NCBI GenBank assembly: GCA_002423385.1
Contig: DIVV01000128.1
Coordinates: 87-64,086 of the forward strand
Direction: 5' to 3'
Source: a bacterium UBP16_UBA6123
GTDB lineage: Bacteria; Muiribacteriota; UBA9980
Length of the DNA stretch: 64,000 nt
Below, piece by piece: positions 26,064 through 46,441 of this stretch (its first letter is position 1; every line of letters starts with the position of its first letter). The notes under the pieces are model-generated. The model ran no database searches and had not been told where the DNA came from. It was given only the letters and a program-made list of their open reading frames with translations. The position numbers and the translations under genes are program-made.

Positions 26064-28469
26064 TCAGTTTTTAGTTAAATTTTTATTTTGGGAAGAGGTT
26101 GAATCATAATAATCATTTAACCACTTAGGCCAAGGCTGAATTTTAAGATACTTCTTTTGAGTCCATTCACAAAGCGGACTAATATTTTGCCAATATAAAC
26201 GCCTTTTTAAAAATTCAGGCTGGTCATTGAGGCTTAACGTCAGTATAGTTTTATTTAAAAACAATTCTTCGCCAGTCAAAATTATTACGTCGTTATAAAG
26301 TTTAGTCTGCTTAAATATATTTCTGTTTAAATTAATAAATTTTTCAAGCAACTCTATTTCTGTTGAATTTAAATTACTTCCTAATTTGGCAAAAACGACA
26401 GTAACTCCGGGAAAACAATTAACTATCGTTTCCATTCGCGAAAAATCATCTTGAGTAAATTCATTATAAGATTTACATTCAACAAATAAGGTATCATAAT
26501 GATTTTCTTCTGAATGCATGTCGGTTTTCACAAACATAGCTAGGTCAACTTCAAAGTTAATTTTTTTATCTTTATTCTTTAAAATTGTTCCAATTATAGG
26601 GGTAGTCTTAAGTTCCAAAATGCTTGAAAAAAACCTTAATGCTAATAAAACAGACAAAGCACCATCAGATTTTTTTATATCGCTAAAAGGGCCGATAACG
26701 CGATACGACCATTTAACATCTTGGGGAGAATGGGATGGTATTTCAAATCTATCTAAGCAATTCGGGCATTGAACTTCATAATCAAAAGTTTTTAATGAAT
26801 GCCAACCACGCTTGCTGCAATGCGGGCATTGGATTTCAACTCCTAACTTTATTATATTCATTTTAATTAAGTCTTGAATTATAACTTTAGGATTATAATT
26901 TTTACTATCGCGACTATTATAGTTTTTGAATATCTTCCCCAACAGTTCATTTTTGCAATTGTTTTCATGATTGTATATCTTGTTAAGTTTCCCATTAAGG
27001 CTCTCTGCATTACAACTGGTTTCCGAAACGTCCGTCAATAATTTGATTAAATCACTTTTAGCTAAAACTGACACTTTATGTAAAGTGCCGACCTGCTTTA
27101 GCATTTGCTTGGCGCTCTTACCTGCTGACGAAAAATCACAATTCCAGTCTCTGCCTCTAAACCAATTCAAAAATATGCTCTCAGAGCTAGGAATTTTCAT
27201 TTCAATTTCTGAATCTAATCGATTTACAAAATATGATATTTCACCTGAATTTTTGACCAAATATTTATTATCAAAAGATGAGAAAAAACTAAGACCATAA
27301 GTATTTAAAGAGCGAGGTAAAACTTCAGGAACTAAAAAATCATCATGATGAATATTTAGTTTGAAATCATTCGAACAATAAATCGGCCGATATTCTGAGT
27401 ATCGATTGATAAAACAAGGCAATAAAGGAGTGATATTTATTGATGAATGGTAATCAGAAAAACTTTGATTTTTATTATCTACTTCGAATCGAGAAAAATT
27501 ATTATTATCTTTATTTATACAAGGAAAAAATAGTTGAATACCAACATCAACCTGAGGTGAAATAGAATTATAATAAGATTTAAATAAACCTGCGATATGC
27601 TTAAGAATTTTATCATCCGAAATTGAACGACTTTTTATAATAAAAACATGGCAACGAACATTATCAGTAAAGAAATCCGGGACATATGCCTTGCAAGCAA
27701 AATCCGCATATTTTTTAATATCGTCATCTGAAAAGTTACTTGGAACAGGCCAGATATTAATTCCTGTTGCACGCAAATTCCAAAAATCAATAATATCGGA
27801 ATAATTTTCTTGGTCAAGCAAATAAAAGTAGTTGTTATGAACTCCATTCTTCGAAAACCTTTTGATATTGAAAGTATTAAGGAATAAGATATAATTATTT
27901 CTCGCTGCGTGCCACTTATAAAACTCATTACTTAAATTCTTTGGACTCTCGGGAAAATTTTGAACGATTCCTTTTAATAATGATTTTTCATTTTCAAACG
28001 CAAGTTTTCCAAATAATGCTGTTAAAAATAATTCATTTTGAACATCAAAAATTGGAATTATCATTTTTTCATACTGTTGTCTCGCATTATCTAATAAATA
28101 GTCACTTATTTCTAAAATATTGCATCCATAAATATTTGTATTTCTGTCAATTAATTCCGAAGAATCAATAATTTTTCGGCTTCCGATTTCAAAGTTTATT
28201 TGGTCAATATCACCAAATTTCACAATAATATCCGGATCAAATGCTTCGATATAGCCCGAAAGAATTTTATCAATATCTTCTACGTCAAAATATTTGTCAC
28301 GCCAAATTTCTGGGATACTATTATAAACCGGAATTATCGGATTATAAATGCCTCCCCAGAGCAATGTATTTATATTTATAGCTTCCAGCAAGACCTTTTT
28401 ATCGCCTGGCGGAACTAAAAAAGCAAATCTCAAAGGTCTAAGAGTTATATCAATGTTTCCATTGGCCAT
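26064..28469 (-). CDS. Large hypothetical protein (801 aa) with paired CxxC zinc ribbon and possible C-terminal PD-(D/E)xK-like motif
   Basis: CPHCSKRGW...CPNCLDRF; near the C-terminus VKTD...(15 aa)...FVECKSY. No P-loop. Very AT-rich. The start lies 4 nt after the stop of the 343-aa gene. Confidence 0.4.
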   Translation of the reverse strand: MANGNIDITLRPLRFAFLVPPGDKKVLLEAININTLLWGGIYNPIIPVYNSIPEIWRDKYFDVEDIDKILSGYIEAFDPDIIVKFGDIDQINFEIGSRKIIDSSELIDRNTNIYGCNILEISDYLLDNARQQYEKMIIPIFDVQNELFLTALFGKLAFENEKSLLKGIVQNFPESPKNLSNEFYKWHAARNNYILFLNTFNIKRFSKNGVHNNYFYLLDQENYSDIIDFWNLRATGINIWPVPSNFSDDDIKKYADFACKAYVPDFFTDNVRCHVFIIKSRSISDDKILKHIAGLFKSYYNSISPQVDVGIQLFFPCINKDNNNFSRFEVDNKNQSFSDYHSSINITPLLPCFINRYSEYRPIYCSNDFKLNIHHDDFLVPEVLPRSLNTYGLSFFSSFDNKYLVKNSGEISYFVNRLDSEIEMKIPSSESIFLNWFRGRDWNCDFSSAGKSAKQMLKQVGTLHKVSVLAKSDLIKLLTDVSETSCNAESLNGKLNKIYNHENNCKNELLGKIFKNYNSRDSKNYNPKVIIQDLIKMNIIKLGVEIQCPHCSKRGWHSLKTFDYEVQCPNCLDRFEIPSHSPQDVKWSYRVIGPFSDIKKSDGALSVLLALRFFSSILELKTTPIIGTILKNKDKKINFEVDLAMFVKTDMHSEENHYDTLFVECKSYNEFTQDDFSRMETIVNCFPGVTVVFAKLGSNLNSTEIELLEKFINLNRNIFKQTKLYNDVIILTGEELFLNKTILTLSLNDQPEFLKRRLYWQNISPLCEWTQKKYLKIQPWPKWLNDYYDSTSSQNKNLTKN

Positions 28470-28473: not shown

Positions 28474-29505
28474 TCATTCCATCCAATGCCTTGAAGGGGA
28501 TGATATTTTTTTCCCCCTCACAAATTTTAAATGTAGAGCTCTTTTAATCTTAACGTTAAGGAGTTTCATTGCGGACACACTTTTCGAAAGATTGATAATA
28601 TCACTTTGAGATTTTATTACTTTAGTAAGGCGACATATATTATAAAGAATATTAAAAAGAATTTGGTCTGAATTCGCTAAATCATCTGAGTTAATATCCT
28701 TATACTCGCCCGTATGAACGTATTTACATCTTTTCTTGTATAAGCCATCCATAAGTTTTGCCCAATATTCAGTTTCATTATTTGTCATCCATCCAAACAT
28801 CCCAACAACATTATCAATAATATCATCAATTTTGGAGGATAATAATGATTCAATAGCAATCATGTTATATAAAAATGAATCGTGAATTTTATGTGTAAGT
28901 TGACTTTTACCCGCTAAAATTGCAGCATTTCTGATTGAAAATTTCCAATTTTCATTTATAGCGCCGAAATCTTTATTTAATATTTTAATTAAATATGGAA
29001 AAAAATGATTTTTAATGTATTTGGCCCATTTATTATCAAGTAAATATTCACAAGTTGGAAAATGTATGCCCTTGCTTTCAAATAAATCTTTTTGAATATC
29101 GTAACATAAAATTTCATCCTGCAAATTAAGTGTTGCATCAGTATATGGATTGCCAAAAAAATATCTTCTTCTTCTATCTACTCTAAAAAATTGCGAAGAA
29201 GCTAAAATAAAAACAGAATCTTCAATTTGTTTAAACTCTCTGTCGAGTGATACAAGACCGTCATTGTTAGTTTTTATTATCGCATATGTTTCTGCTTTGC
29301 TAAAAAATTTATAGTTAAATATTTTCATCCATTTTTGTTTTTTTACATAAGATGAAATAGGGCTTTTAAATCCTATTTTGTTTCTGATACGCGATATTTT
29401 GTCCGCTGATACGAAACGGACTTGCTCTATCTGATATTCACCTTTTAACTCTTCAGAAATCTTTAAATTATAAATTGGAAAACACAATATCCATTTATTT
29501 GCCAT
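28474..29505 (-). CDS. Hypothetical protein (343 aa) with HEPN-like R-x4-H motif, possibly Abi-like
   Basis: LYKKRCKYVHTGEY matches the Rx4-6H HEPN signature. Start ATG is 1 nt after the brxL stop. Very AT-rich. Confidence 0.35.
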   Translation of the reverse strand: MANKWILCFPIYNLKISEELKGEYQIEQVRFVSADKISRIRNKIGFKSPISSYVKKQKWMKIFNYKFFSKAETYAIIKTNNDGLVSLDREFKQIEDSVFILASSQFFRVDRRRRYFFGNPYTDATLNLQDEILCYDIQKDLFESKGIHFPTCEYLLDNKWAKYIKNHFFPYLIKILNKDFGAINENWKFSIRNAAILAGKSQLTHKIHDSFLYNMIAIESLLSSKIDDIIDNVVGMFGWMTNNETEYWAKLMDGLYKKRCKYVHTGEYKDINSDDLANSDQILFNILYNICRLTKVIKSQSDIINLSKSVSAMKLLNVKIKRALHLKFVRGKKISSPSRHWME

Positions 29506-29506: not shown

Positions 29507-31534
29507 TTAACTAACCCCCAGCGCCTTAAACACAGCGTCTATCGGGTCGGCATAGAACGAAATCTGGAACTTCGAGAACAGGTCCGCAGGAACGGTCGGA
29601 ATCTGAGATACCGACGACATTGGAAGAAGGATTTTACGGGCACCGGCATCGCAGGCAACCTGTAAGGTATTGGCGAGGTTATCGAGCGAAGCGATGGTGC
29701 CGCCCAGGGTCATCGAACCTATAACGGCCATCTGTTCCTGAATGGGTTTATTTAAGATGCCCGAGCATAAAGTAATAAGGGTGGTCAGGGATAGTTCATC
29801 AGAGGCGCCAGCCCCCTGAAGGTCGATGATATGAATCATGAAGTCTTTATTATCGGTCTTTATGGTGGCGCTGATTCGCGATGCGTTAGCCTTGAAATAG
29901 TTAAAGCCCGTGTTGATGCTTTCCTTTACATTAACTGACTTTCCAGCGCCGGTCTTAACGAATTTACCAGAACCATCCAGGATTTGAAGTTCGAGTTTAT
30001 AAACGCCGAACATATCGCTGTCGCCGCGAGCAACGGTATAGATATGTCCGGCCTTGCCTACCCCTTCCGGAATGAGAACATTGCCGCCCTGTTCCGGCAC
30101 TGAAACGAAAAACTCGTCGAAGGATTCGTTATCGATATACGAGAAATGGACATCGTAAAATTCCATTCCGCCGAGCTTCTTTAATTGTTCTTTTATCCTG
30201 CGGCGGGTTTCAAGCGCATAGGTCAGGCATTCCTTAACGTTGTCGATAGTATATTTTTCGTCGGGGAATAGAAGTTTAAGCATCCCCGAAACAGTCTTTT
30301 TAACCGCTATAACGTCACGCTGGTTAAGATTGCTGCCGAGTTTAAAGAATTTAGTAATAGAGTCAGAGAAATTACGCTTACGCATTTCTCTTAAGAACTC
30401 AGCAAGATAATCGACAATGAATCCGAACTTATTGGTAAAATACTCAGGTCGCATCTTGGGTATTTCCCAGCCGGGTATATAGTTATGGAACCTATCGAAG
30501 AAAGCCGTATCAATCATCGTTTCAGGAAATGGCTCGAACAGGTGGGATGTCTTTACAAGAGTTTCGACGCTCTGGTTAATATTGCCGACGAACACCATAG
30601 AAGCATTGGCAGAAATGGCATCCTTGCCTCGCGCGAAGGAACCGGACGCCATAAAATCCTTCATAATCTGAACGCCGTCTCGGTCTTTAAACGATATTCC
30701 GGCGACCTCATCAAAAGCCACTACATCCCAGAGCCCGACAAGTCCGACGGTCTTGGAGGCCATATTATAAAACAGGTTCGCCACCGTCGTCTGCCCGCCC
30801 GAAACGAGAATCGAATTGGGCGAAATTTCTTTATAGATATGAGACTTACCCGTTCCTCGCGGCCCAAGTTCACAAAGATTATAATTATTTTCGCATAGCG
30901 GAATCATTCGTGCGAGCAGATGCCACTTCTCACGGTATTTAAACTGTTCGGGCTCCATGCCCACCGAGCGCAGCAGAACGTCAATCCATTCTTCTTTCGT
31001 AAACTTCTTACGCCCTTCAAAGACTTCGTCCATATCCATGTTAGGCATCTGGATAGGCTTCAGGCTCTGTATTTCAAACGGCGAATGAAATTTCGTATCG
31101 TCATTGAAGTTATATTCGATTTGCAGAATACACCATATTCCGCCCGCAAGAAGTTTTTCGAACTCCTTTACATAGTTCGCGGAAACTTCTACGTCCTTAA
31201 TCCCCAGGTTTAAAAGGGTAGCGACATACATATCTTTTTTTTCGTTGAGCCTGACGGTAACTTTATCAATTATTGAATAGCGGCCGGATTCTTTTATCTT
31301 CGACTTGACCTTTTCGGCTTCATCGGGCCGGACATAATTTTCCGCCAGAATCTTTTTAACGCTCTTAACGCCTTCGGTTATCTCGTCTTCGTTAGACGTG
31401 GCGCAATACATTCCAAGAAGATACTCAAGAACGTAAACAGGAACGTTCGCACCTTCTTTAATAAGTTTCGTAAGGTCTTTGCGGACGACCTTTCCAGGAA
31501 ATACCTCATTTAATTTCAAATCAAGAACATCCAT
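29507..31534 (-). CDS. brxL: BREX system Lon protease-like protein BrxL
   Basis: 675 aa; N-terminal ATPase-like region (GPRGTGKSH) and C-terminal Lon proteolytic-like domain (DLQGAGASDELSLTTLITLCSGIL...VIGSMTLGGTI); follows pglZ. Confidence 0.8.
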   Translation of the reverse strand: MDVLDLKLNEVFPGKVVRKDLTKLIKEGANVPVYVLEYLLGMYCATSNEDEITEGVKSVKKILAENYVRPDEAEKVKSKIKESGRYSIIDKVTVRLNEKKDMYVATLLNLGIKDVEVSANYVKEFEKLLAGGIWCILQIEYNFNDDTKFHSPFEIQSLKPIQMPNMDMDEVFEGRKKFTKEEWIDVLLRSVGMEPEQFKYREKWHLLARMIPLCENNYNLCELGPRGTGKSHIYKEISPNSILVSGGQTTVANLFYNMASKTVGLVGLWDVVAFDEVAGISFKDRDGVQIMKDFMASGSFARGKDAISANASMVFVGNINQSVETLVKTSHLFEPFPETMIDTAFFDRFHNYIPGWEIPKMRPEYFTNKFGFIVDYLAEFLREMRKRNFSDSITKFFKLGSNLNQRDVIAVKKTVSGMLKLLFPDEKYTIDNVKECLTYALETRRRIKEQLKKLGGMEFYDVHFSYIDNESFDEFFVSVPEQGGNVLIPEGVGKAGHIYTVARGDSDMFGVYKLELQILDGSGKFVKTGAGKSVNVKESINTGFNYFKANASRISATIKTDNKDFMIHIIDLQGAGASDELSLTTLITLCSGILNKPIQEQMAVIGSMTLGGTIASLDNLANTLQVACDAGARKILLPMSSVSQIPTVPADLFSKFQISFYADPIDAVFKALGVS

Positions 31535-31553: not shown

Positions 31554-34196
31554 TTAAAAATCGTCAAAGTCGTTTCCAATCCCAATATTGATATTGTAGA
31601 TTTCTTTCATGTATTCGCTATCCGTATCGACATCGTTGGCTACAAGATAATAATTCCTGCTCTTTTCATAGTTTCCGTTCTTAACGGTCAATTGAATTTT
31701 TTTCTCGCGTTCGTCGGCGTTCTTCGATGCGCTGTCGAACACAATCGTTTTCGAATCACTTATCATCCTGTAAATACCATCAGGCGTTATATCATATAAA
31801 GCAATAGAGAGTTCGCGCGGCTTAAGTTTATCCTCTAACCTATCCTTCTGAAACAAGGTAACGCTGAATCGATTATTAGTTATCTTACGCATCGTCGAAG
31901 TCAGCGTTATATCGACCTTACGCTGCGGTATTCCATCTAATTTCTTTCCTTTAATGTGCCGACAGCTGATTACCGGAATAACGACTTCCTGAAGCGAAGC
32001 TCCGCCATGGACATAATTGACGCCGCCGCCCTGAGCCTTAAACCGGTTGTTGCCATTTGGGACTATCACCGAAAGCCCCGAATTTTGTTTGCCGAGGTAA
32101 TCGAGGACTATATTAAGCGTTCCTTCCTGCCCATTGAGATGTTTACCCAGCATAAAACGCTTATTTTTGCTTATATAGTTTGAACTATCGACTTCAACCC
32201 TGTCGCTCTCTTCGAGCGGCTTCCGGCTATATATAAAACCGTGGTCAGAAGTTATTACGATATTATTGCCGTTGAGATTCATTATCTTCTTGACGCCGGC
32301 AATCAATCTGTTTATGGCATTTTCAACCGCCTCAAAAACTTGAGCCTCGCTCTGAGGATTATCGCCTATGGAATCAATAGAATCGTCGTAAACATAAAAT
32401 ACACGATTTTCAGATACAAATTTTCTTCCGTTATCGCTATTCATGGCCATAAGTTCATCAATCTTAATGGCGACCGAATCGGGTCGCTTTTCTTTAAGGA
32501 TTTTATCCCTGTTGTCGATTCCGGAAGAGTCAAGGTCATTTACCGTTACATGACCGTTATCGGTCACTCTAATAGCCTCTCTGACGTGTTTAAGGGGTAA
32601 TAACGATGCCATGCCCAGTTGAGTATATGATGGGATGACTCCGAGCATCGACGTCAGAGTGATTTCAGTCCTCGTTTCTTTATCGATGCGGCGGGAAAGT
32701 TCTTCTGCAATTTCAAAACGAAGGCCGTCCGATATAATAATAAAAATTTTATCGCGGTCGTTTTTATCCAGAACGGGAATTTCGATATGCTCCCTGTAGA
32801 ACTCGAACTGCCTTTTAATGCCTTCGAGTTTCAGGTCCCAGCTCTGCAATTGCTTTCCGGCGATAGTGTTTTCTTCCTTCACCAAAGCGGTCCACTCACT
32901 TGACAGGTTAAACAGATACCAATTAACGTAAAGGTCTTCGACTCTTTCAACGAGATTCTTCAAGATATCGGCCACCTTAGTTTTAGCGTAGTAGAAGTAA
33001 AAATTTCTGTATGCCTGGTCAAACTTATAGTAATCCGAGCAGTATCCCTTAAAAAATTCATTGACGGTCGCATGTTTGAAGCCGTCATTATACTTCGATT
33101 TCAACTCGAAAAGGTCAATGGCGGCATTAATCGCAAGATAAATATCAGAGTAGTTTTCATACCAGGTCATGTTACGGCGCTTTTCAATGATGCCCCTGAA
33201 TTTTTCATGGTCGGCGGAACCTTCAAGCAGTCCATTAATGATGCTCAGAATAACCGCCTTATCTATAATATCGAATGTCGAGCACTCTAAATAGTCTTTA
33301 ACGTCGAGGCCTTTAATAACATTTTTAAAATTTATTTCGCTTTCTATTTCAACCGCGAATTGCCGGTATGAAGTTCCGTCAATTTTATGATTAACCCAGT
33401 TATCAACGAATACATGAGCATTGTTATGAACGGCCAGCAGGAACTTGTTAAGGGCGGCCGGAAAAGCCAGGCCGCGATAATCGTTATGGAAATGGGTAAT
33501 CAAAAAGCATATCATTAAATTTTTAAGCGATTTCTTATCGGTTTTGTAGCCATATTTACGTTCGACCAGCAACCAGAACTTATTAATTTCATAATACTTT
33601 TGAATATCCTGGTAATTGTCGTTGCTTTCGGCTTCGAGCCCTCCGGATAAAACGGCGCGGACGATACTATCGGCATCAGTGTTTTTAATGCCTGACAGAA
33701 CCGCCATAAAACAAAGGGCAAGCTCCGCTTCGTTGATATCCTGATTGATAAGCGCTTTAATCGCCTGGTACCGCTTAGAACTATCAAAAAACTTAAGATT
33801 ATTCTGGATTACCTGTCTTAATGAACGGTCATGCAATCCAAGGTCATTATAAATGACCGAAGCCTTATCAGCTGAAAACTCATCTGAATATAAATAAATA
33901 TCCAGCAGCCAGTTCTCATCGTCCGGCGGCTTCGCTTCAGGCGAATAAACGATGATGTTTTTAGATTTCAATTCTTTTTCAATCAGATGTTTAACCTGAA
34001 ACTCATTTTTTTCGACGGTGATTTTTTCAAACCCGGCGATATCGAGCGCATCAAAGTCTTCACGAAACGCGGCTCCATCGTCATACCAGAATATGACCTG
34101 CCGGGCTTTACCGTGTTTCTGGCTGTGCTTACTTATTAAAATTTCTATCCCCTGTTTGATTTTATCTAAGTTCAATTTTAAACTCCTAGCGCTCAA
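31554..34196 (-). CDS. pglZ: BREX alkaline-phosphatase-superfamily protein PglZ
   Basis: 880 aa; PglZ domain hallmarks IVITSDHGF and NYVHGGASLQEVVIPV. Confidence 0.85.
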   Translation of the reverse strand: MSARSLKLNLDKIKQGIEILISKHSQKHGKARQVIFWYDDGAAFREDFDALDIAGFEKITVEKNEFQVKHLIEKELKSKNIIVYSPEAKPPDDENWLLDIYLYSDEFSADKASVIYNDLGLHDRSLRQVIQNNLKFFDSSKRYQAIKALINQDINEAELALCFMAVLSGIKNTDADSIVRAVLSGGLEAESNDNYQDIQKYYEINKFWLLVERKYGYKTDKKSLKNLMICFLITHFHNDYRGLAFPAALNKFLLAVHNNAHVFVDNWVNHKIDGTSYRQFAVEIESEINFKNVIKGLDVKDYLECSTFDIIDKAVILSIINGLLEGSADHEKFRGIIEKRRNMTWYENYSDIYLAINAAIDLFELKSKYNDGFKHATVNEFFKGYCSDYYKFDQAYRNFYFYYAKTKVADILKNLVERVEDLYVNWYLFNLSSEWTALVKEENTIAGKQLQSWDLKLEGIKRQFEFYREHIEIPVLDKNDRDKIFIIISDGLRFEIAEELSRRIDKETRTEITLTSMLGVIPSYTQLGMASLLPLKHVREAIRVTDNGHVTVNDLDSSGIDNRDKILKEKRPDSVAIKIDELMAMNSDNGRKFVSENRVFYVYDDSIDSIGDNPQSEAQVFEAVENAINRLIAGVKKIMNLNGNNIVITSDHGFIYSRKPLEESDRVEVDSSNYISKNKRFMLGKHLNGQEGTLNIVLDYLGKQNSGLSVIVPNGNNRFKAQGGGVNYVHGGASLQEVVIPVISCRHIKGKKLDGIPQRKVDITLTSTMRKITNNRFSVTLFQKDRLEDKLKPRELSIALYDITPDGIYRMISDSKTIVFDSASKNADEREKKIQLTVKNGNYEKSRNYYLVANDVDTDSEYMKEIYNINIGIGNDFDDF

Positions 34197-34854
34197 ACCA
34201 TAGCCTTAAAGTCTCTACAAATTTATTGAAAGCCCTATCTTGACAACCATTTACGCTAACTTTTTCGGCAATTTCTTTATATATCGAGGAAGAGCGTGGC
34301 TTTTTGATTTTTTGCAATACCGCTTCAAGAGCTTCTTTAGGGCGTTGAGGCTTAATTTGCTGTAAATTTTTAATGAATCCTTCATTTAAGAGCCATTGTT
34401 GTAATCCGACTGGCTGATTTCTCCAGCCGATAATTCCACTTAAACAAGGCGAGTTACTCCAAACCCAATTTTCAAGTTCAGGGTAAATAGCAATTACTTC
34501 TGAACGGTCCGCCCAGCCATTTTGCCTTAGTTTCACCTTGATTTTTTCTTCAATTTCTTCCACACTTTTATCTTCACTTCCACTCCCTTCATAGTCAAAT
34601 AGCATTAAAGCATATTTATATCTTGAAGAAAGAGGCATTAAGAAATCAACCCCATTTTTACAACATCCAGGGTCATGCCCCGGATGAGTGAAAATATCGA
34701 ATTTATCTCTGGCAATTGATATTCCAAGCGATGTTTGCCTATTTAATAACAAACTATTTATTGATTCTTTCATCGTATTATCTGCAACAAGAACAACAAG
34801 TTCTTTTTCTTTCTCGACAGGTAAAGCAATACCTTTTTGAAAAATTTTTTTCAT
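34186..34854 (-). CDS. Hypothetical 222-aa protein, partner of the upstream AAA ATPase (possible DUF4276/RloB/Toprim-like effector)
   Basis: Start ATG shares one nucleotide with the ATPase stop (TAATG at 34852-34856); overlaps pglZ start by 11 nt; no confident motif match. Confidence 0.35.
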   Translation of the reverse strand: MKKIFQKGIALPVEKEKELVVLVADNTMKESINSLLLNRQTSLGISIARDKFDIFTHPGHDPGCCKNGVDFLMPLSSRYKYALMLFDYEGSGSEDKSVEEIEEKIKVKLRQNGWADRSEVIAIYPELENWVWSNSPCLSGIIGWRNQPVGLQQWLLNEGFIKNLQQIKPQRPKEALEAVLQKIKKPRSSSIYKEIAEKVSVNGCQDRAFNKFVETLRLWFER

Positions 34855-36110
34855 TACAGCACCCCACCAGCAAAAAGAATACTTAAATTAGGATTATTCT
34901 TCCAATCTTTAAGTGCGGGATGTTCATTGCCCGAAACAATCACTGTAGCGCCACCATCGGTTTTATTAAAACATAACACATCACTCGTTTTGGACATACT
35001 TAATATAACCGGCGAATGTGTCGCAAGAAAGATTTGAGCATCATATACTGAAGATAAAGACTGATAAACGGATTCCATCGCACTGGGATGAATTCCGTTT
35101 TCAGGTTCTTCAATTAAATATATTCCATTAAAATTTTGAAGATATGCCAGAAGCGTCAACGCTAAAAATCTAAGCGTGCCATCTGAAGCCATCCACGAGG
35201 GAACTTCAATGTTATTTTTGTAAACTATTTTTAAGTATCGATGCTTATTATCGGGAAACTCAATAGTAATTATATCTATAATATCGGGCAATGCACATTG
35301 AATATGCTTTATCCAATCCCGAAATCTATCTTTATCCGTAGTACGAAGTTCCTCAATAACCCACGGAAGATTGGAGCCATCGGATTTGAACATTTTTGGC
35401 TGTCCGGGAGGACTTGCTACACGAATAAGCTGACTATTTAGCACTATTTTTTGAATTCCTTGAGTTAAAAGTTTTTTAAACCACATGGTTACCGGAAACA
35501 TCGATTTGTCTTCCGGCAAATTAGCTAATGCGGTTTTTTTAGCTCCAAACTTGAAAGACGGACTCCATTTTTTTTCTTTTACAGGCACTTCAGAATTAAA
35601 ATGGTCGTTCCCTTTTGGTGTTTTACATAGTATCGTTTTAATACCCGTTAAATCCTTTGTAAATAATGATTGCGGGGGAGAAGGCTCGTTATCTATTAAA
35701 AGTCCCGAATTACGAATTAATCGTTTGATAGATGGTTTCAACAATAATTTTTCTTCAAGAATACCAATTTCATTGGTTTTCATAAGTCCGATTCGAACTT
35801 GATAACGAATAATTTTATATGTCGATTCATTATAAGTTTTTATATATTTTTCAGGTATTTCAGCTTCTATTGCAAGTTCGAAGAAATCGCTTTCGCCTTT
35901 CCATACCAGGTCATGAAAGTTTTGCGTTCTATCGGAAATCGCTTTATCGACACCATCCGAAACGAGGCTTCCTAAAAAGGCGATAACATCCAGAAACGTC
36001 GTTTTTCCGCTTGCGTTAGGCCCGACAAGAACATGAAAATTACTCAACTTTTGTGCAATATGTCGTAAGCATTTATAATTTATGGTTTCGATTAATTTAA
36101 TCATTTTCAA
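34854..36110 (-). CDS. AAA_21/ABC-type ATPase (OLD/RloA/AriA-like ATP-binding protein)
   Basis: Walker A VLVGPNASGKTT, C-terminal IYLIEEPENGIHP (Walker B/D-loop) and LATHSP H-loop motif typical of AAA_21/AAA_15 defence ATPases. Confidence 0.6.
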   Translation of the reverse strand: MKMIKLIETINYKCLRHIAQKLSNFHVLVGPNASGKTTFLDVIAFLGSLVSDGVDKAISDRTQNFHDLVWKGESDFFELAIEAEIPEKYIKTYNESTYKIIRYQVRIGLMKTNEIGILEEKLLLKPSIKRLIRNSGLLIDNEPSPPQSLFTKDLTGIKTILCKTPKGNDHFNSEVPVKEKKWSPSFKFGAKKTALANLPEDKSMFPVTMWFKKLLTQGIQKIVLNSQLIRVASPPGQPKMFKSDGSNLPWVIEELRTTDKDRFRDWIKHIQCALPDIIDIITIEFPDNKHRYLKIVYKNNIEVPSWMASDGTLRFLALTLLAYLQNFNGIYLIEEPENGIHPSAMESVYQSLSSVYDAQIFLATHSPVILSMSKTSDVLCFNKTDGGATVIVSGNEHPALKDWKNNPNLSILFAGGVL

Positions 36111-36164
36111 CCTCTAAAACTAACTTTTAAAATATGGCATTATAATTACCTTAGAACCTTATTA

Positions 36165-36920
36165 TCATTCAAGCATTATTCCAAAACATTTTTCATATTC
36201 TTTTAAAATGTCTTTATGTTGTTCGGCCATAATCTGATTATATTCTTGCTGGCGCTCGTATTCTATCAGATTCATTTCATTATCAAGCATTTTATCCAAT
36301 TCATGTTCTAAAATTAAAAACTCATTTTCAATATCTTTTTCAGCATGCAAAGTATTAATACATGTTTCAAAAAACAAATATATTTCATCCATTATGTCTT
36401 TAAAGTTTTCGATGTCAATCCATTGTTCATGATTTATTACCATATTTAAATGCTTATCGAAAGGATACCTGAAATAAAATGAATTTTCATCCTTAAGCGA
36501 AAATTCATTGATGTAATTTTCCGCCACATCAATATCTACATCACATACCTCATTATTTTTCAATATCTGCTTTACTTTTTGTTGCCAAACTTTATTGATA
36601 TCATGACTAACGGCTTTAATAAATTTTATTTTATTTTCAGTGGACTCATTGGAAAAAACAATATAAATGTACTTTAATACTAATTCCAAATAGTGCCTAT
36701 ATAAGAAGAGAACTGGATATATCAAGGTGTCATAGGATTTTGAACTATCATCGTTCAATATTTTTTCAACCAAAGCATCAGCACCATTTTTATACCCTAA
36801 ATAATATCCCATCAATCTCAATTCTGACTTTCCCCAACCAATCTGACTTAACTTCGTTGAGGGCCTGGTCTCAAAAAGACTTTTTCGTTTTTTAAAAATT
36901 TGTATGTGGGTTATAGTCAT
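36165..36920 (-). CDS. Hypothetical 251-aa protein translationally coupled to pglX
   Basis: ATGA overlap with pglX stop at 36917-36920; AT-rich; no recognisable domain. Confidence 0.35.
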   Translation of the reverse strand: MTITHIQIFKKRKSLFETRPSTKLSQIGWGKSELRLMGYYLGYKNGADALVEKILNDDSSKSYDTLIYPVLFLYRHYLELVLKYIYIVFSNESTENKIKFIKAVSHDINKVWQQKVKQILKNNEVCDVDIDVAENYINEFSLKDENSFYFRYPFDKHLNMVINHEQWIDIENFKDIMDEIYLFFETCINTLHAEKDIENEFLILEHELDKMLDNEMNLIEYERQQEYNQIMAEQHKDILKEYEKCFGIMLE

Positions 36921-39900
36921 TGCTCATCATCGCCCTCAGAGTCGGCTGCACTCTTAGTCTTCCATTCACACGCCTTCAGCAGGTCATCCTTCTTAAAGTA
37001 AGTGTCGTAATAAACAAGGTCCCCGCCGCCCTTCTCAGGGTTACCGAATCTTGTATAGTTGTATGCGACACCATCATCGAGGTCAATTTCTATTTTCTTA
37101 TCGGCAAAGTGCTTCAACAACTCGTCATATTTACGAATTTCGACGATATGCTCATCGATTTCCTTGAGTCGTTTATCGTTCTGTTTTTTTTGTTTGGCGT
37201 CGCCGCTCTGCGATATGTTTTCGAGCGTGCGTTTTTCGGTTTCAAGTTTAACCAGCAACTGCAAGAGGTAATCAACTCTGATTTTAGCGAGCATTGACGG
37301 CGTGTAGCGATGCATGTAAATCAATACATTAAATGCCCGCTTCTTTCCTGAAGTAAATAGCCAGTAAATTGGTCGTTTTTGATAAGTCTGAAGGTGGTCG
37401 CGATAAAACTCGGTCAAGAAGTATTTACGGATTTTTTGGTCGGTAGATTCATTTGAGGTCTTGCCAAGTGCCTCAGCTATAAAATCAAGATTCTGGGTGA
37501 GGTTTTTCTCACCAAATGTTACTTTGACGAAGTCAATAAAACGAGCGACTATGTCGTCGTTGAACCATGCATCACCGAGGACCGGGATAATACCGTCGTC
37601 GTCAACTTGATAGGTTTTATAGTTGTCTTTGTTAAATTCGCCGCCTGCAAAGATAAGGCCTTCTTTATCGAGAGAATAACGTCCCATCATACAGCCGATT
37701 GCGTAAGATATAAAAGATTTTATTTCACGCTCTTTATCCGCTTTTCTGATAGTGACGTCTTTATCTTCAACTTCTGGCGTCATTTCATCCTGAAGACCAT
37801 AAATATCAATAAAAACGCGGTTTAACTCTTTTTCGTTTTTTTTGAGTTGATTAAACTGGTCTTCGGTAAAATTTTTCCAGTTTTCAAAAATTTCAGACAA
37901 AGTATGAATTGATGAAAAATTTAAAAACGGATGTTTTTCGAAGTCCCATGCAATTTCAAAAGAGTTCCATTCGTGACGTGAAATTTCAATGTTTTTTTTA
38001 CAAATTTCGCGAATTTCCTGGTTATGTTCAGATGAAAAAATAACAGGTATTTTTTTTATTTCTCCTGCTTGATAATTCAATGTCGGTGCAAGAATTTTTA
38101 CAATTTCTAATATTATTTTCGAATTAACAAGTGCTAAAGTATAATAATCACAATCACCATTAAATACTATTGATGGAGAAGCATCATCAAAAAAAACATC
38201 ACAATCATCGTATCTAAAGCTAATATTTAAAGAAGTTATTTTAGACCATACTATATGATGTAAATTATAATATTTCGAAGCCCCTAATCCACTTCCGTCG
38301 AATTTTTTTAATTCATAGGCATTATTATGCCATTTAATAACACTATCAAAGTTGCCGTACCATCTTCTAAATGCACCTCCTTTAGAGTATTTATTCCAAT
38401 TTCTATTATCAAAATCTTCTTTTGAAACTTCATACCAATATCTAATAAAACGATCATTGTTACCGGTAAATATACCTTTAATAATAGCTTTTGAATATTT
38501 TTCGAGACATGTATTATCATTAAAAACATTAATCATTTTTTTGCTTATCCAATACGCTATTGGGAAACCTGGGATTTTAGAAAATTCTGATGTTTTTAAA
38601 GAATATCTATATGTTACATCTGGATTGCCGATAGCTTCACGTGTTTTAATAGGTTGATTATCAGCCCCAGAAAAAGCACTTAATCTAATATAATCACCAT
38701 TAACATTAATCATTTTATTTTTAAATACATATGTGCATGCCGGAACACAAGCGGCTTCAAACGCATTATATTCTAATTGTATTAAAGATAAAATCGTTTT
38801 ATTTCCAATAATTTCTTTTCTTAGTTTTTCGTAAGATTGAATAAACATCCATACAAATGGTGTAACAAATCCCAAATATCCAGATTCTAAAGAAAAATCA
38901 AAACATCTTTCTATAAACGCTGAAAACAAATCTGTCTTTGTATTAGAATAATTTTTACCTAAAAACATAGAAATTTCAGGATTCATATATTTATTTCCAA
39001 CATAAGGAGGATTTGTAACCACACAGTGATATTTACTGTTCAATATATTAGCAATTAATGTAACCTTTTTCAGTATGACTGAGTTCAAGCATTGATACAT
39101 ATCTCCTGAGCTTTCCATCTGATTCAAGGCTTTTTCAATAGAATCTAAGTCTAAAGTTGGTATTTTAATTAAAGAACCGTATGTTTTAGAATTTAAAAAT
39201 TTTTCAATTAATAAATCAACTTTCGAGTTATTTACATCAATATTATTAGTTTCTACAAAACAATGAACATTCAGATAAGCGTTATCATCAAATATTTTAT
39301 GAGTCTTTGACCTTGCTTTCATTAATATAGAAAAGCAAGATAATTGGATGGCGCGTTCATCTATATCAAGCCCATAAAGGTTATTTTTTAAAATTATTTT
39401 GGGTATTTCGCGTTCAATATAGCCGGATTCTTTATACATTTCAAATAACAAATCAAAAGCATAAACAAGGATATGTCCCGAGCCACAAGCGGGGTCAAGA
39501 AACTTAATTTCTTCTGGTTTAATACTGTTAAAAGCATTAGCCTTAATTTCTTTTTTTTCTTCATCAGTAAGGTTTCTCGGCTCAATATAAAATTCCATTT
39601 TAGAACGTAAATTTGAATCTGGGTAAGCCTCTAACCATAAACGCCCAAGTGTGTTATCTACCATATACCTGACCATCCAGTCAGGAGTATAGAGTTGCGT
39701 TACTGTTGGAATTTCATTGTTTTTATATTTCTTTTTCGCTTTTATTAGTTCGTCTTTTCTTTCGAACATGTAGAACTGATACATCCAGCCGATAATTTCA
39801 ACATTTTTCCAGTCTTCCTCGGGTATTTCAGATACAAGGTCGCGAACGATAGACCCTTCATTTAAAAGACCGTCGGGAAGCAATAATTCGGTATAATCTC

Positions 39901-40420
39901 TTGAATCGTCAATCTTTTCAAACATAAAAGGCATCCAGCTATGGAGCTGATTGCACTTGGCGATTATAAGCATTCTATAAAGTTCTTCGGTCCTGGATTC
40001 ATCCTTTAACTTCGCTACCTTCGCAGAATCGATGCCAGGTAGGTCAAGCGATTCGGCATGAATGATAATATCCGGGTCATGACGGCCTTCGGTGCTCGAT
40101 GACAGGACACGCTCGATATATCCGTTGCACTCCATGAAACGCAGCGCGATAAGCCTGTTAAACCAGGTATAAGCTACTTCTTCAACAGCCTGCTCGAACC
40201 CCTTTGATTTAACGGAGTTATTAAGGTTTTCCCATTTAACTTTTATCTGTCGATTGTAAGTTTTGCCGTTAATCGTTATCGAATCACCAGTAGTAGTGAC
40301 CGTTTTAAGATTCTGAGCGGCATCTTCCGTAATGCTATAAAAGTGCGCCCTGGTCTTTATCTGATTTATGAGCTTCTGTCTGGCGCTTATGGCAAATCTT
40401 TTCAATATCGACGTATCCAT
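36917..40420 (-). CDS. pglX: BREX N6-adenine DNA methyltransferase PglX
   Basis: 1167 aa; AYTWFNRLIALRFME, FLDPACGSGHILVYAFD (motif I) and VVTNPPYVG (motif IV). Confidence 0.85.
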   Translation of the reverse strand: MDTSILKRFAISARQKLINQIKTRAHFYSITEDAAQNLKTVTTTGDSITINGKTYNRQIKVKWENLNNSVKSKGFEQAVEEVAYTWFNRLIALRFMECNGYIERVLSSSTEGRHDPDIIIHAESLDLPGIDSAKVAKLKDESRTEELYRMLIIAKCNQLHSWMPFMFEKIDDSRDYTELLLPDGLLNEGSIVRDLVSEIPEEDWKNVEIIGWMYQFYMFERKDELIKAKKKYKNNEIPTVTQLYTPDWMVRYMVDNTLGRLWLEAYPDSNLRSKMEFYIEPRNLTDEEKKEIKANAFNSIKPEEIKFLDPACGSGHILVYAFDLLFEMYKESGYIEREIPKIILKNNLYGLDIDERAIQLSCFSILMKARSKTHKIFDDNAYLNVHCFVETNNIDVNNSKVDLLIEKFLNSKTYGSLIKIPTLDLDSIEKALNQMESSGDMYQCLNSVILKKVTLIANILNSKYHCVVTNPPYVGNKYMNPEISMFLGKNYSNTKTDLFSAFIERCFDFSLESGYLGFVTPFVWMFIQSYEKLRKEIIGNKTILSLIQLEYNAFEAACVPACTYVFKNKMINVNGDYIRLSAFSGADNQPIKTREAIGNPDVTYRYSLKTSEFSKIPGFPIAYWISKKMINVFNDNTCLEKYSKAIIKGIFTGNNDRFIRYWYEVSKEDFDNRNWNKYSKGGAFRRWYGNFDSVIKWHNNAYELKKFDGSGLGASKYYNLHHIVWSKITSLNISFRYDDCDVFFDDASPSIVFNGDCDYYTLALVNSKIILEIVKILAPTLNYQAGEIKKIPVIFSSEHNQEIREICKKNIEISRHEWNSFEIAWDFEKHPFLNFSSIHTLSEIFENWKNFTEDQFNQLKKNEKELNRVFIDIYGLQDEMTPEVEDKDVTIRKADKEREIKSFISYAIGCMMGRYSLDKEGLIFAGGEFNKDNYKTYQVDDDGIIPVLGDAWFNDDIVARFIDFVKVTFGEKNLTQNLDFIAEALGKTSNESTDQKIRKYFLTEFYRDHLQTYQKRPIYWLFTSGKKRAFNVLIYMHRYTPSMLAKIRVDYLLQLLVKLETEKRTLENISQSGDAKQKKQNDKRLKEIDEHIVEIRKYDELLKHFADKKIEIDLDDGVAYNYTRFGNPEKGGGDLVYYDTYFKKDDLLKACEWKTKSAADSEGDDEQ

Positions 40421-40437: not shown

Positions 40438-43400
40438 TTAAACAATTTCTATGCGTTTATTATTTTTGATATGCTGTTCCAGATTGATTTTGAGTTCTGA
40501 AATATAATCTTCGACATCCTGTTGAGTCTCCAAATACATTTTTTTAGTCAGCGCTTTAGGGCTCACTGGTATGGTTTGCTTTAAAATAACCTTTTTTAAC
40601 TCAGGACCGGCACCGACGGAATTACCTCCAGAAGCTGGAGTAACATGTTTTTTTTGAATACTTTCAATTACATCATTGATAAACTGCTTGGAATCGGTTA
40701 TCAGATTTTTAATATCGCTTTGACGAGCAATCAGCGAATCAAGCGTCTGAGAGTTGTTTATCGAGCATTCCAGTATATCGAATTTATTAACGATGGGGTC
40801 ATTTGAAACATCCTTAACCCCTAATTCTTCCCAATTGATTATGAAATCTTTGCGTGCTTTACCTAGAGCACCTGCAACAACTTTCATCTTCTCTTCTATC
40901 AACCTGGAAATATGTTCTTTGATACTTTTACAAATATCCGATAACCTGGGAATATTTGAATACGGCGAAGGCATATTCAATATCTTTTTTAACTCTGAAA
41001 TCTTACTTAGTACCGCTTCATCGCTTATATGAATGATATTGCTTTCAGCTATTTCCCTGCATTCGAGGGCGTCATCGAAATGCCGGCGCTGCGAGGCAAA
41101 AAAACCTTCAATAACGCTCATGTCATCGATGTGGTCTTTAAAATCATCGAACCTGGAAGTTATGCAAGCGAATAACTCGGCCATATCCTTAATTTGAAGC
41201 GCATCTGATAGAAGTTCAATGCCGGCTTCAATCATTTTCAAGCAGGGGTAACGATTCTTTTCAGATTCGTATTTAAATTCTTTGAGCGCTACGTGCTTGC
41301 CCTCAAACTCAGTTTTCAGCAGTTCGAATAATTCCGCCTCTTCTGATGGAACATTTACCTTTTTAAAATAATCACGGTATAACTGCTGGGCGTTCAATAC
41401 ATCTTTCGGAGACGATTTCTTTTTAACCGATATTACATACTTTTCAAACATATTCTGATTAAGAATCTTATCGGCCAGGTCTTTTTCTGTGTGACTGACG
41501 GTTTCAGAATCTTTGAATAGAATTATTTCGCCTTTCCGCAAAAGGGTGGCCATTACTCCCGCTATATCGACATTCGGCCATCCATATGGCTTTAATGAAA
41601 ATTTTTCGTATAAGGTTTTCAATGTAACTTTAAAGTTTATATGAGCCTTCATATTGATGAAGTCTAACATTTCCTTTCTGGCAAGGCTGTTCACTTCCTT
41701 GCCGTCAAGGTCTGTCTGAACAAATTCATTCGCCGTCAGTATCCGTTTGATGTCTTTTTCGTCCTTCAAAAATAATGTTATATAAGATAATTTCGTATAG
41801 ACGTTAGTTATAAGTTTTTCAAGACCATTATTGATGGCCAGTTTCACATCCTTAAGCTTAACTTCGAATTTTTCGTTGCAGACGTAGTAATCTGCGCCGG
41901 CAACCAATCCGACCAGCATATTTTTGATACGGGTTTTGCGGTTGGTATTGTCCTGCGCCTTCGACTCAAGAATCTTTTTTATTGAATCGGGAAGAGACAT
42001 CGAATTCTTTGTCCTGATATATTTTTCAGTTTTTAGCATCTCCGAAATTTCATCTATAAAGAAGCTGTCTCTGGCTATCTTAATCAGAAGTGTCGAATTA
42101 TCGGCAGTTTCATATAAGCATTTAAGGTCGTTAAATAACTGATAGTCATCATGATGCGGGGTAACGATTTTAATCGTGATGTCATTCTGCTGATGACCGT
42201 GCGCCACATCATCAACTAATCTATTAAATGAATAATCTTTGATGTTTTTATAACGGTATTTTTTATCCGAGTAAACCTCATTCCACATCAAATCATTAAT
42301 ATAGTTGGTGACTTCGCGTTCATCGTAAGTCACCTTTTTAATTTCTCTGCTTACATCCTGTTCTTCATCGGTAAGGAAGTAGTATTCATCGTTATTACGC
42401 TGAATCAGAGTCTGTTTTTCAAGCCGGTCGAGAGCGGCCTCGATGTTTTTTCTTAACTGGAGCTTGTCCTGGTCAATTTCGGAGCATGAAAGCGTCGTAA
42501 TATTATCAATGTTCGGCTTTATCTCTTTTATGTATTTAATCATGAACAGGGTCTTTAAAATTTCGACGTCAAAATCCTTAAGTTTCGAATTGCCGGCGGC
42601 CTGCATGATAACGCGCTTAATAGCGGCATCCAGAAAACCTTCTATGGCCGAATAAAATGTGTAGAACGGAACCAGGATGTCGGGCGTTCTGTCCTTGTAA
42701 ACACACGCGGCAACCTGGAACGAATCGAGCATCGAGCGTTCGCCCTGCGAGAGGTGCTTGCCTGACGCTCCGGTTCGCCTTATGGCTTCGAATACCCTTT
42801 GAAGAAGCGTGAACTGATAAGGAACGAACGGGTATGCAGTAACGAAATCTTCCGACGAACTATAATTCTTAAGCTCAACCGTAGTATTCTGAGAAAAGCA
42901 TAGCTGGCTCTTTAAGGTCGGTTCCTTTTCCTTATAGATGTCCGTCAATTCCGAAACCGCCTCCGGCTTCTTAGTTAAAAGCCTTTTTTTAATTACCTCG
43001 TCGGTATTTGCGCTCGACAGATTCAGGCGAGTGTTAAAACGCCCCTGTATCTTGGAAAAATCCATATCTCTTATTCTTCCGACCAGCGAGTCAATATCGT
43101 CCTGAGCAGTAACGATAACCCAGGCATTGCCGCCGCACTTTATACCAAGGTCTTCGACGACGGTCTGTAAATTCAACATCAGGTTCGGGTTGTCGGCAAT
43201 ATACTGGCCGACTTCGTCGACTAAAAAGATTACCCGGTGGTTCTTTCCTTTAGCCTTAATGTGCTTACTGACGAGCTCCGCAAACTTGCTTATGGATTCT
43301 TTATACCAGTCATCCAATTTATCCAGCCACCGATGAGCCGATTCAGAGGTCATGCCGAACGCTTTAATGAGAGAATCGACGATTTCGTCCTGAATCAAAA

Positions 43401-44001
43401 AGAAGGAGGAACGAGATTCCTCCCATGACTCACCGTGAACCTGAGTAAATATTTTTTTAAATTCTTCGTACTTTCCTTCACCATCGAGCATTCTTTCGAA
43501 TTCGGCAACCTGAGGCAGCTCGCCGCAATAACCGCATTTTTCATTGAAGACTTTCAGAAATACGCTTACTATAGCATCTTTCTTGCTTTTAGAATCGGAG
43601 TCAGCCTTGCTGTCGATGTTGAAAAGAATGACGTCGGATGAAGACTGACTGCAAACTTTCAACTGCCCATAAAGCATCTGGTCGGCGACTTTATCCTTAA
43701 AGAAATCAAGCGCCTGCTTGCTTTTTGCCTCACGATTTTCGAGCAGGTAAGATAAAATTTTTAAGAGGTGCGATTTACCGGAACCAAAGAAGCCGCTAAT
43801 CCAGACGCCAATCTTGTCTGTAGGTCTCTGAAGCGAAGAGGTATAAAACTCATAAAATTTATGAAATATTTTATCGAGCTCTTTTGTAATTACATATTCA
43901 TCGAGTTCCTGAAATATGTTTTCGCTATCGTCCTGTCCGACCTTGATAACGCCGTTGATATTTCTCGTTATATCCTTCTGGAATAGGTCTTTAATATTCA
44001 T
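40438..44001 (-). CDS. brxC: BREX P-loop ATPase BrxC/PglY
   Basis: 1187 aa; N-terminal Walker A GFFGSGKSHLLKILSYLL; size and position between brxB and pglX. Confidence 0.8.
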   Translation of the reverse strand: MNIKDLFQKDITRNINGVIKVGQDDSENIFQELDEYVITKELDKIFHKFYEFYTSSLQRPTDKIGVWISGFFGSGKSHLLKILSYLLENREAKSKQALDFFKDKVADQMLYGQLKVCSQSSSDVILFNIDSKADSDSKSKKDAIVSVFLKVFNEKCGYCGELPQVAEFERMLDGEGKYEEFKKIFTQVHGESWEESRSSFFLIQDEIVDSLIKAFGMTSESAHRWLDKLDDWYKESISKFAELVSKHIKAKGKNHRVIFLVDEVGQYIADNPNLMLNLQTVVEDLGIKCGGNAWVIVTAQDDIDSLVGRIRDMDFSKIQGRFNTRLNLSSANTDEVIKKRLLTKKPEAVSELTDIYKEKEPTLKSQLCFSQNTTVELKNYSSSEDFVTAYPFVPYQFTLLQRVFEAIRRTGASGKHLSQGERSMLDSFQVAACVYKDRTPDILVPFYTFYSAIEGFLDAAIKRVIMQAAGNSKLKDFDVEILKTLFMIKYIKEIKPNIDNITTLSCSEIDQDKLQLRKNIEAALDRLEKQTLIQRNNDEYYFLTDEEQDVSREIKKVTYDEREVTNYINDLMWNEVYSDKKYRYKNIKDYSFNRLVDDVAHGHQQNDITIKIVTPHHDDYQLFNDLKCLYETADNSTLLIKIARDSFFIDEISEMLKTEKYIRTKNSMSLPDSIKKILESKAQDNTNRKTRIKNMLVGLVAGADYYVCNEKFEVKLKDVKLAINNGLEKLITNVYTKLSYITLFLKDEKDIKRILTANEFVQTDLDGKEVNSLARKEMLDFINMKAHINFKVTLKTLYEKFSLKPYGWPNVDIAGVMATLLRKGEIILFKDSETVSHTEKDLADKILNQNMFEKYVISVKKKSSPKDVLNAQQLYRDYFKKVNVPSEEAELFELLKTEFEGKHVALKEFKYESEKNRYPCLKMIEAGIELLSDALQIKDMAELFACITSRFDDFKDHIDDMSVIEGFFASQRRHFDDALECREIAESNIIHISDEAVLSKISELKKILNMPSPYSNIPRLSDICKSIKEHISRLIEEKMKVVAGALGKARKDFIINWEELGVKDVSNDPIVNKFDILECSINNSQTLDSLIARQSDIKNLITDSKQFINDVIESIQKKHVTPASGGNSVGAGPELKKVILKQTIPVSPKALTKKMYLETQQDVEDYISELKINLEQHIKNNKRIEIV

Positions 44002-46437: not shown

Positions 46438-46441
46438 TAGA

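Follow-up and report, generated by a model that had tools for sequence, protein, structure and literature searches.

A complete type 1 bacteriophage exclusion (BREX) operon is encoded on the minus strand of a 64,000-nucleotide (nt) stretch of DNA from the bacterium UBP16_UBA6123 (assembly GCA_002423385.1, contig DIVV01000128.1, positions 87 to 64,086), which is referred to in its entirety as the window. Its six core genes, brxA, brxB, brxC, pglX, pglZ and brxL, are co-oriented in the canonical order, and all of them gave strong matches in both Pfam and PADLOC, which places the operon within type 1 BREX. The element under study is a three-gene insert between pglX and pglZ, consisting of a 251-amino-acid (aa) open reading frame (ORF251), an ATPase of the MAD3 family and a 222-aa partner of the MAD4 family. 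The features of the operon are listed below in the direction of transcription.

44605-45273, minus strand: brxA (Pfam, PADLOC)
44027-44599, minus strand: brxB (Pfam, PADLOC)
40438-44001, minus strand: brxC (Pfam, PADLOC)
36917-40420, minus strand: pglX, the BREX methyltransferase gene and upstream boundary of the insert (PADLOC PglX, 1408.9 bits; Pfam Eco57I and N6_Mtase)
36165-36920, minus strand: ORF251, a single-gene cassette of 251 aa (read from the sequence; unnamed family with a predicted HEPN-like helical fold)
36111-36164, minus strand: spacer of 54 nt separating ORF251 from the ATPase gene (read from the sequence; contains an AGAGG ribosome-binding site)
34854-36104, minus strand: MAD3-family ABC-type (AAA_21/AAA_15) ATPase, 416 aa (NCBIfam, PADLOC, Pfam)
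34186-34854, minus strand: MAD4-family partner, 222 aa, with a predicted OLD-type TOPRIM-like fold (NCBIfam, PADLOC, fold model)
31554-34175, minus strand: pglZ, downstream boundary of the insert, likely start TTG 34175 (PADLOC PglZ, 882 bits)
29507-31534, minus strand: brxL, the last BREX core gene (Pfam BrxL_ATPase, 1.3e-149; PADLOC BrxL, 1144.6 bits)

The insert had been reported in a sequence-only reading of the window, and its three open reading frames were found intact on the minus strand as described. The overlap of the ORF251 start with the pglX stop as ATGA and the single base shared by the ATPase stop and the start of the 222-aa gene (TAATG) were read directly in the sequence, and the Walker A motif (VLVGPNASGKTT) and LATHSP are both present in the ATPase. 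Two start codons were revised. The longest frame of the ATPase (34854-36110, 418 aa) opens at TTG 36110; the start is most likely to be ATG 36104, giving 416 aa, because this codon is preceded by an AGAGG Shine-Dalgarno sequence, the Joint Genome Institute (JGI) gene call is also 416 aa long, and the NCBIfam MAD3 alignment begins at residue 3. As for pglZ, the tight packing stood, and the proposed 11-nt overlap hinges on the longest frame, from TTG 34196. A 10-nt spacer is likelier because TTG 34175 is preceded by AGGAG (34187-34183), which itself overlaps the stop codon of the 222-aa gene, PglZ is 873 aa in the JGI gene calls on two contigs, and the match to the PADLOC PglZ model sets in at residue 8.

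No frameshift or internal stop was found in any of the three insert genes, all of which have ribosome-binding sites, and identical insert proteins are encoded on contigs from several independent metagenome samples. The 54-nt spacer is the sole non-overlapping junction inside the insert. One promoter-like match falls in the region of this spacer (36168-36139, 10 of 12); promoter-like matches across the insert region do not exceed the counts in shuffled sequence, and no terminator-like site was found on the coding (minus) strand within the insert.

The MAD3/MAD4 pair

The ATPase matched the NCBIfam model NF047739 (antiphage_MADS3) over its full length with 499.9 bits against an equivalog cut-off of 420, and is thereby a member of the MAD3 family. 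Its top match in PADLOC was HEC-01A (2.4e-42), followed by mad3 (9.7e-36), and Pfam returned AAA_21 (7e-32), AAA_15 and SMC_N only. The earlier description of the protein as AAA_21-like is borne out by the first two of these Pfam matches; the analogy that had been drawn to the BrxD-type ATPases of other BREX types finds no support, there being no match to BrxC_BrxD (PF10923). The 222-aa protein scored 213.4 bits against NF047734 (MAD4, equivalog cut-off 160), with PADLOC matches to mad4 (1.6e-10) and, weakly, to HEC-01B (5.6e-4). Its predicted structure is of the OLD/AriB-type TOPRIM fold with conserved acidic residues, and the likeness suggested at the outset to the phage anti-restriction-induced system (PARIS), RloA/RloB and AAA_21+DUF4276 modules is apt on account of this fold. 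At the level of sequence profiles, the protein matched neither DUF4435 nor AriB, and no Pfam model even at E ≤ 10, including PF14103 (DUF4276); a precomputed PF14103 match exists for one MAD4 relative (P0143), which points to a relation with DUF4276 that would be distant at best.

For a census of MAD4, one genome per species was scanned, yielding at least 580 candidate stretches that encode a relative; the locus counts given here refer to the best 80 of these, fetched with 10-kb flanks. MAD3 lies directly upstream of MAD4 in 79 of the 80 loci, the remaining one ending at a contig edge. A homologue of BrxA, BrxB, BrxC, PglX, PglZ, BrxL or ORF251 was found within 10 kb in none of them, and no family recurred in more than four loci when 508 neighbouring proteins were clustered. 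The direct neighbours are mostly housekeeping proteins (for example NadA, PdxJ, amidase, GyrB and fatty-acid desaturases), with a few that are restriction-modification (R-M)-like, namely Methylase_S (twice), GmrSD_N, SNF2, MmeI and N6_N4_Mtase. Three further loci with database gene calls are likewise free-standing. Given that all 40 aligned MAD4 relatives match NF047734 and that most of the examined loci are free-standing, the MAD4 name says nothing about context.

The single plasmid match of the MAD4 search was to the Piscinibacter gummiphilus plasmid NZ_CP136338.1 (L185, 10387-27453), whose genes are annotated only generically and encode, in order, an HTH protein, an N-6 methylase, an AAA ATPase, the MAD4 relative (hypothetical), a further hypothetical protein, a 1,391-aa protein kinase and two large hypothetical proteins. 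This operon is read as resembling the methylation-associated defence system (MADS). Its ATPase-partner pair directly follows the methyltransferase gene; in the window the pair follows pglX with ORF251 between. With the ATPase of this MADS-like operon the window ATPase shares 34% identity, and with that of one free-standing copy, which is flanked by penicillin amidase and sulfatase genes, 57%; by these two values the window pair looks closer to the free-standing copies.

The ORF251 family

The earlier statement that ORF251 has no recognisable domain is true of sequence searches and does not extend to the predicted fold, which is HEPN-like. Library scans gave no match in Pfam (even at E ≤ 10 and including every HEPN model), PADLOC, NCBIfam or PHROGs; no relative of ORF251 was found by sequence in the PDB, and searches of solved structures came back empty for both proteins queried. 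The exact protein occurs only on contigs of apparently the same organism, from several metagenome samples. A single-sequence, word-indexed search returned one relative and a two-sequence profile 762, and an exhaustive phmmer scan delineated a family of at least 2,179 clusters at 50% identity (E ≤ 0.001), most members of which are about 200 aa long. Residues P69, Y74, E79, K83, H106 and R151 are invariant in the family and fall within the motifs YPxLFLYRHxLELxLK, H-[DN]-L-x-x-L-W and D-x-x-S-x-A-F-R-Y-P. A model built on 85 sequences (predicted local distance difference test score, pLDDT, 90) is all-helical, with a long C-terminal helix that is extended in ORF251, and conforms to the HEPN helical bundle. 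ORF251 itself carries R151-x5-H157; an arginine stands at -4 to -7 from the invariant H106 in just 16 of the 85 sequences. ORF251 is accordingly described as HEPN-like in its predicted fold, with a conserved site that departs from the canonical one, and ribonuclease activity is not implied.

The genomic settings were examined at 93 ORF251-family loci, of which 78 are non-redundant and 27 of those have at least 2 kb on both sides. MAD4 is encoded at none of the 93, one of them has a weak MAD3-like match on the other strand at a distance of about 7 kb, and no recurrent partner gene was found by clustering the neighbours. Some four to five of the 78 non-redundant loci lie inside or beside a modification system. 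A family member is situated between hsdS and hsdR at one locus (L118, 925-5933), and at another (L163, 248-4646) just 5' of an hsdR whose product has a DUF4145 domain at its N-terminus. In a second and distant type 1 BREX (L109, 1-5108; PglX C-terminus 43% and PglZ 28% identical to the window proteins), moreover, the gene immediately following pglX is a homologue of ORF251, and its start overlaps the pglX stop by ATGA as in the window. The cargo that follows this homologue comprises an FRG protein (PADLOC PDC-S15) and a DUF7380/DUF4209 protein (PDC-S39), after which comes pglZ; three single-gene cassettes are stacked at this one pglX-pglZ junction. The positional link between ORF251 and a methyltransferase gene seen in these two BREX loci is suggestive, two being too few to establish it.

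Other relatives adjoin Mrr, SLATT_4 or HEPN_Apea genes, and one on a Bacillus plasmid lies beside integrases and an AAA ATPase and helicase pair that is taken to be Gabija-like. Relatives annotated as hypothetical are carried by 240 plasmids, which are for the most part from Escherichia, Klebsiella and Salmonella and of which 182 are conjugative; on the E. coli IncI plasmid NC_019097.1 (L180, 5905-6513), for example, the family gene sits in an accessory region with DUF4238, DUF3800 and site-specific integrase genes. A phage origin of ORF251 is unlikely in view of the mere 10 relatives among 2.9 million viral contigs and the lack of a PHROG match. The closest relative outside its own organism (P0002, 31% identity) is encoded at a locus (L004, 1-2610) where it has a PemK-toxin gene pair on one side and, downstream, a gene that is RtcB-like as judged by sequence; a Ro60-type vWA gene lies upstream, and the arrangement suggests an RNA-repair neighbourhood.

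Origin and interpretation of the insert

The GC content at third codon positions (GC3) is 0.56 in brxA, 0.48 in brxB, 0.46 in brxC, 0.47 in pglZ and 0.52 in brxL; in the insert it is 0.29 for ORF251, 0.29 for MAD3 and 0.28 for MAD4. Considering these low values together with the native-like last 270 codons of pglX, the insert is delimited as a foreign block reaching from the pglX stop to the pglZ start. The pglX gene is itself a mosaic, with a GC3 of 0.46-0.49 in codons 1-200, 0.12-0.29 in codons 300-900 and 0.43-0.54 in codons 900-1167, and its low-GC3 middle (approximately 37.7-39.5 kb) corresponds to the methyltransferase core and the target-recognition part. This suggests that foreign DNA of low GC content took the place of the specificity-determining middle of pglX, independently of the insert downstream. 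A search for repeats flanking the insert, or for a copy of a tRNA end, gave only short, low-identity chance matches, and hence no sign of either a transposon or an integrase-borne cassette; we infer that entry by recombination within the conserved BREX flanks is more likely than transposition.

The reading that we favour, with a probability of roughly 0.6, is that two unrelated, self-contained cassettes, the MAD3/MAD4 pair and ORF251, are cargo in a known pglX-pglZ hotspot of type 1 BREX and are transcribed together with it. A nested independent system was one of the two options offered by the sequence-only reading, and it is the one best supported by the 80 MAD3/MAD4 loci, none of which holds BREX genes or shows a recurrent neighbour; the same three-gene set was sought elsewhere and not found outside contigs of apparently the same organism. 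Several observations weigh against this reading. As regards a defence role for ORF251, some of its relatives are solitary among housekeeping genes; as regards its HEPN assignment, the Foldseek E-values are weak, a histidine at +4 to +7 after R151 (the Rx4-6H arrangement) is present in only 6 of the 85 sequences, and hhalign detected no similarity between the family and a neighbouring HEPN_Apea protein (probability 0.3%). In MAD4, an aspartate replaces the canonical TOPRIM glutamate and D-x-E replaces DxD, so its nuclease activity can only be presumed. Among published systems, a PARIS embedded in a Salmonella BREX was inactive against all phages tested, with Ocr eliciting no PARIS-dependent defence (Went et al. 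2024, PMC11341690), and the embedded candidate HEC-01 gave no defence against the phages tested (Payne et al., bioRxiv 10.1101/2024.01.29.577857). Lastly, the requirement for mad3 and mad4 in MADS defence argues for integration with the host system and not for autonomy.

This last point leads to the proposal, which we hold to be fairly unlikely, that the pair is integrated into BREX as a restriction-side effector, as is apparently the case in MADS, with BREX recognising unmethylated DNA and the pair cleaving or poisoning. In Pseudomonas aeruginosa MADS, deletion of mad3 or mad4 lowers defence, methylated plasmid stock was grown in a mad3 deletion strain, and mad5 is deletable only if mad2 or mad3 is also removed (Maestri et al. 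2024, preprint 10.1101/2023.03.30.534895). Together with these genetics, the equivalog-level matches to MAD3 and MAD4, the parallel between the place of the pair after the methyltransferase gene in the MADS-like plasmid operon and after pglX, the tight junction with pglZ and the proposal of auxiliary nucleases that complement PglZ (Rakesh & Krishnan 2026, PMC12839542) speak for such integration. Canonical type 1 BREX nevertheless functions without the pair, MAD3 and MAD4 were classed as accessory by the MADS authors themselves on the grounds of not being detected in all systems (preprint 10.1101/2023.03.30.534895), the window ATPase falls in the free-standing clade (57% as opposed to 34% identity), its closest relatives share neither BREX nor any common neighbour across the 80 loci, and GC3 points to a recent foreign origin. 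That all three genes form one system, as their treatment as a single unit had implied, with ORF251 sensing for the ATPase-TOPRIM pair, regulating it or serving as its second effector, is very unlikely: the genes are indeed adjacent, on the same strand, tightly packed and alike in their low GC3 (0.28-0.29), yet none of the 80 pair loci has an ORF251 relative and none of the 93 ORF251-family loci has MAD4, the homologue after pglX in the distant BREX has wholly different downstream cargo, and the one real spacer of the insert (54 nt) divides ORF251 from the pair.

For ORF251 taken separately, a role as a BREX or R-M accessory instead of an effector in its own right, in which a HEPN-fold protein without catalytic function would bind the methyltransferase/specificity module (PglX, HsdS/M) as an adaptor or guard and modulate or monitor it, is unlikely. 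It would account for the ATGA-overlapping place after pglX in two BREX loci so distant that their PglZ proteins are 28% identical, for the homologues located in between hsdS and hsdR or immediately before hsdR, and for the want of a conserved Rx4-6H motif; it sits poorly with a family whose members are mostly solitary, in part housekeeping-flanked and devoid of a recurrent partner, with the four to five modification-system settings among 78 loci, and with the invariant E79, K83, H106 and R151, which resemble a catalytic or ligand-binding site more than a pure adaptor. A tentative alternative, possible if on balance doubtful, is that the family comprises stand-alone effectors or PrrC-like guards that insert repeatedly just 3' of BREX or type I R-M methyltransferase or specificity genes and fire upon inhibition of these systems by phage. 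As a separate possibility, the MAD3/MAD4 pair may give BREX a nuclease arm, as perhaps it does in MADS. It is very unlikely that the insert is passive, hitch-hiking cargo, be it selfish or addictive genes without benefit to the host or inactive genes. The negative outcomes for HEC-01 and the embedded Salmonella PARIS would fit such a view; set against it are the three intact frames with ribosome-binding sites, the retention of family-conserved residues, the identical sequences in several samples and the polar position in the operon, where disruption would cost the expression of pglZ and brxL.

Under the favoured reading of two nested cassettes, any defence function, trigger, substrate or cross-talk with BREX is put forward solely from family, fold and context. 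The first cassette would be a sensor-effector pair of an ABC-type ATPase (MAD3) and an OLD-type TOPRIM-like protein (MAD4), in which the ATPase, on the model of PARIS, OLD and Gabija, probably restrains the nuclease until a phage cue appears, conceivably an anti-restriction or anti-BREX protein. Nucleic acid would then be cut by the TOPRIM protein and the infection halted, the pair thus acting as a backup layer for BREX. The second cassette, a single HEPN-fold protein with non-canonical conserved residues, is probably another stand-alone effector or guard. There is little new in the architecture and the ATPase pair, and ORF251 is moderately new as an entry to a large family without a library match. 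The lack of such a match, the confident HEPN-like model, the occurrence at two distant BREX loci and in type I R-M contexts, and the presence on enterobacterial plasmids make this family a cheap candidate for a defence screen.

The surroundings of the operon hold further features. A tRNA-Thr (CGT) gene lies at 46440-46515, and an 83-aa remnant of a phage integrase (655-906 of the related contig L001) is located between this tRNA and brxA; on these two elements the BREX region looks like a tRNA-associated genomic island, and no direct repeat of the tRNA-Thr end was found within 18-46.6 kb. Just 5' of brxA, an ORF of 155 aa (45303-45770) with a lysine-rich middle, which is called as a gene on L001, has no match in Pfam, NCBIfam or PADLOC. 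Directly after brxL follow two tightly packed genes for proteins of 343 aa (28474-29505) and 801 aa (26064-28469), with a GC3 of 0.23-0.25, both of which recur on the related contigs L001 and L002. Neither protein has a meaningful match in Pfam, PADLOC or NCBIfam, the 801-aa protein giving weak, sub-cut-off matches of zinc-ribbon type, and the two genes may be another unnamed cassette attached to the BREX operon. Beyond them, a 516-aa protein (24475-26025) combines Schlafen AlbA_2, HATPase_c_4 and a C-terminal winged helix, with only partial matches in PADLOC to pAgo-associated models; it appears to match the Schlafen-kinase-wHTH class that has been linked to BREX (PMC12839542).

Comparison with named systems

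The expectation that nothing should lie between pglX and pglZ is not in keeping with the survey of Went et al. (2024, PMC11341690), in which approximately 7,000 of approximately 9,000 loci with co-localised pglZ and pglX carry at least one gene between BREX components, BrxU and PARIS being among the commonest recognised systems there. The PARIS of the Salmonella D23580 BREX island is, according to the same study, driven by the brxA promoter. Embedding has also served as the basis of a discovery method, and in 96.7% of cases the embedded genes run in the same direction as the system that hosts them (Payne et al., bioRxiv 10.1101/2024.01.29.577857). Both the embedding between pglX and pglZ and the presence of ATPase-TOPRIM pairs inside BREX are hence already documented. 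The sequence-only reading would have been undone had its three genes proved to be an already named BREX component set; the pair does have names, MAD3/MAD4 in NCBIfam and HEC-01 in PADLOC, and it bears them as a MADS or Hma-embedded element and not as a BREX one.

The likeness to MADS lies in both window proteins scoring above the MAD3 and MAD4 equivalog cut-offs, in the order of ATPase then partner with overlapping junctions, and in the pair of the MADS-like operon being likewise placed just downstream of a methyltransferase gene. Among the nine proteins of the window operon, by contrast, PADLOC found no match to mad1, 2, 5, 6 or 7 and only a weak one to mad8 (6e-5), on BrxC. Since MAD6, MAD7 and MAD8 are mandatory in the MacSyFinder model of MADS (preprint 10.1101/2023.03.30.534895) and are absent here, identification of the locus as MADS was rejected. 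The MAD3/MAD4 family is mostly free-standing in the loci examined and yet occurs in MADS, in Hma (as HEC-01) and in BREX, which bears on whether the pair belongs to MADS proper or is cargo nested there as well.

HEC-01, a Hma-embedded candidate in which an ABC ATPase is paired with a TOPRIM-like protein (Payne et al., bioRxiv 10.1101/2024.01.29.577857), resembles the window pair in that HEC-01A is the best PADLOC match of the ATPase and in the two-gene architecture with a TOPRIM-like partner inside a methylation-based system; it differs in that the host is Hma instead of BREX and in the marginal HEC-01B match (5.6e-4) of the window partner. From PARIS the pair differs in that its AriA matches are merely to generic AAA_21-type profiles and that MAD4 matches neither DUF4435 nor AriB, for which reason its assignment to PARIS was rejected; PARIS itself is triggered by anti-restriction proteins of the Ocr type and has tRNA as its substrate. 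By profile the window pair does not qualify as an AAA_21+DUF4276 module either, as there was no PF14103 match at E ≤ 10.

PrrC of EcoprrI, a latent anticodon nuclease nested between type I R-M genes, has been proposed to be a guard of its host system (Payne et al., bioRxiv 10.1101/2024.01.29.577857). Relatives of ORF251 are comparable to it in lying between hsdS and hsdR or directly after pglX, and ORF251 differs in having neither an ATPase domain nor detectable similarity to any named family; a guard function for ORF251 would be a matter of pure inference. Last but not least, Rakesh & Krishnan (2026, PMC12839542) reported that OLD-ABC-linked nucleases, most prominently TOPRIM ones, accompany BREX and related systems in at least 1,242 taxa, and described standalone HEPN proteins and the Schlafen-kinase-wHTH class (at least 1,017 taxa) as backup effectors of BREX. 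ORF251 departs from their HEPN class in matching no Pfam HEPN model; with this difference, the window contains, within the BREX operon or beside it, one of each of these backup classes, namely the MAD3/MAD4 pair, the HEPN-fold ORF251 and the Schlafen-HATPase-wHTH gene.

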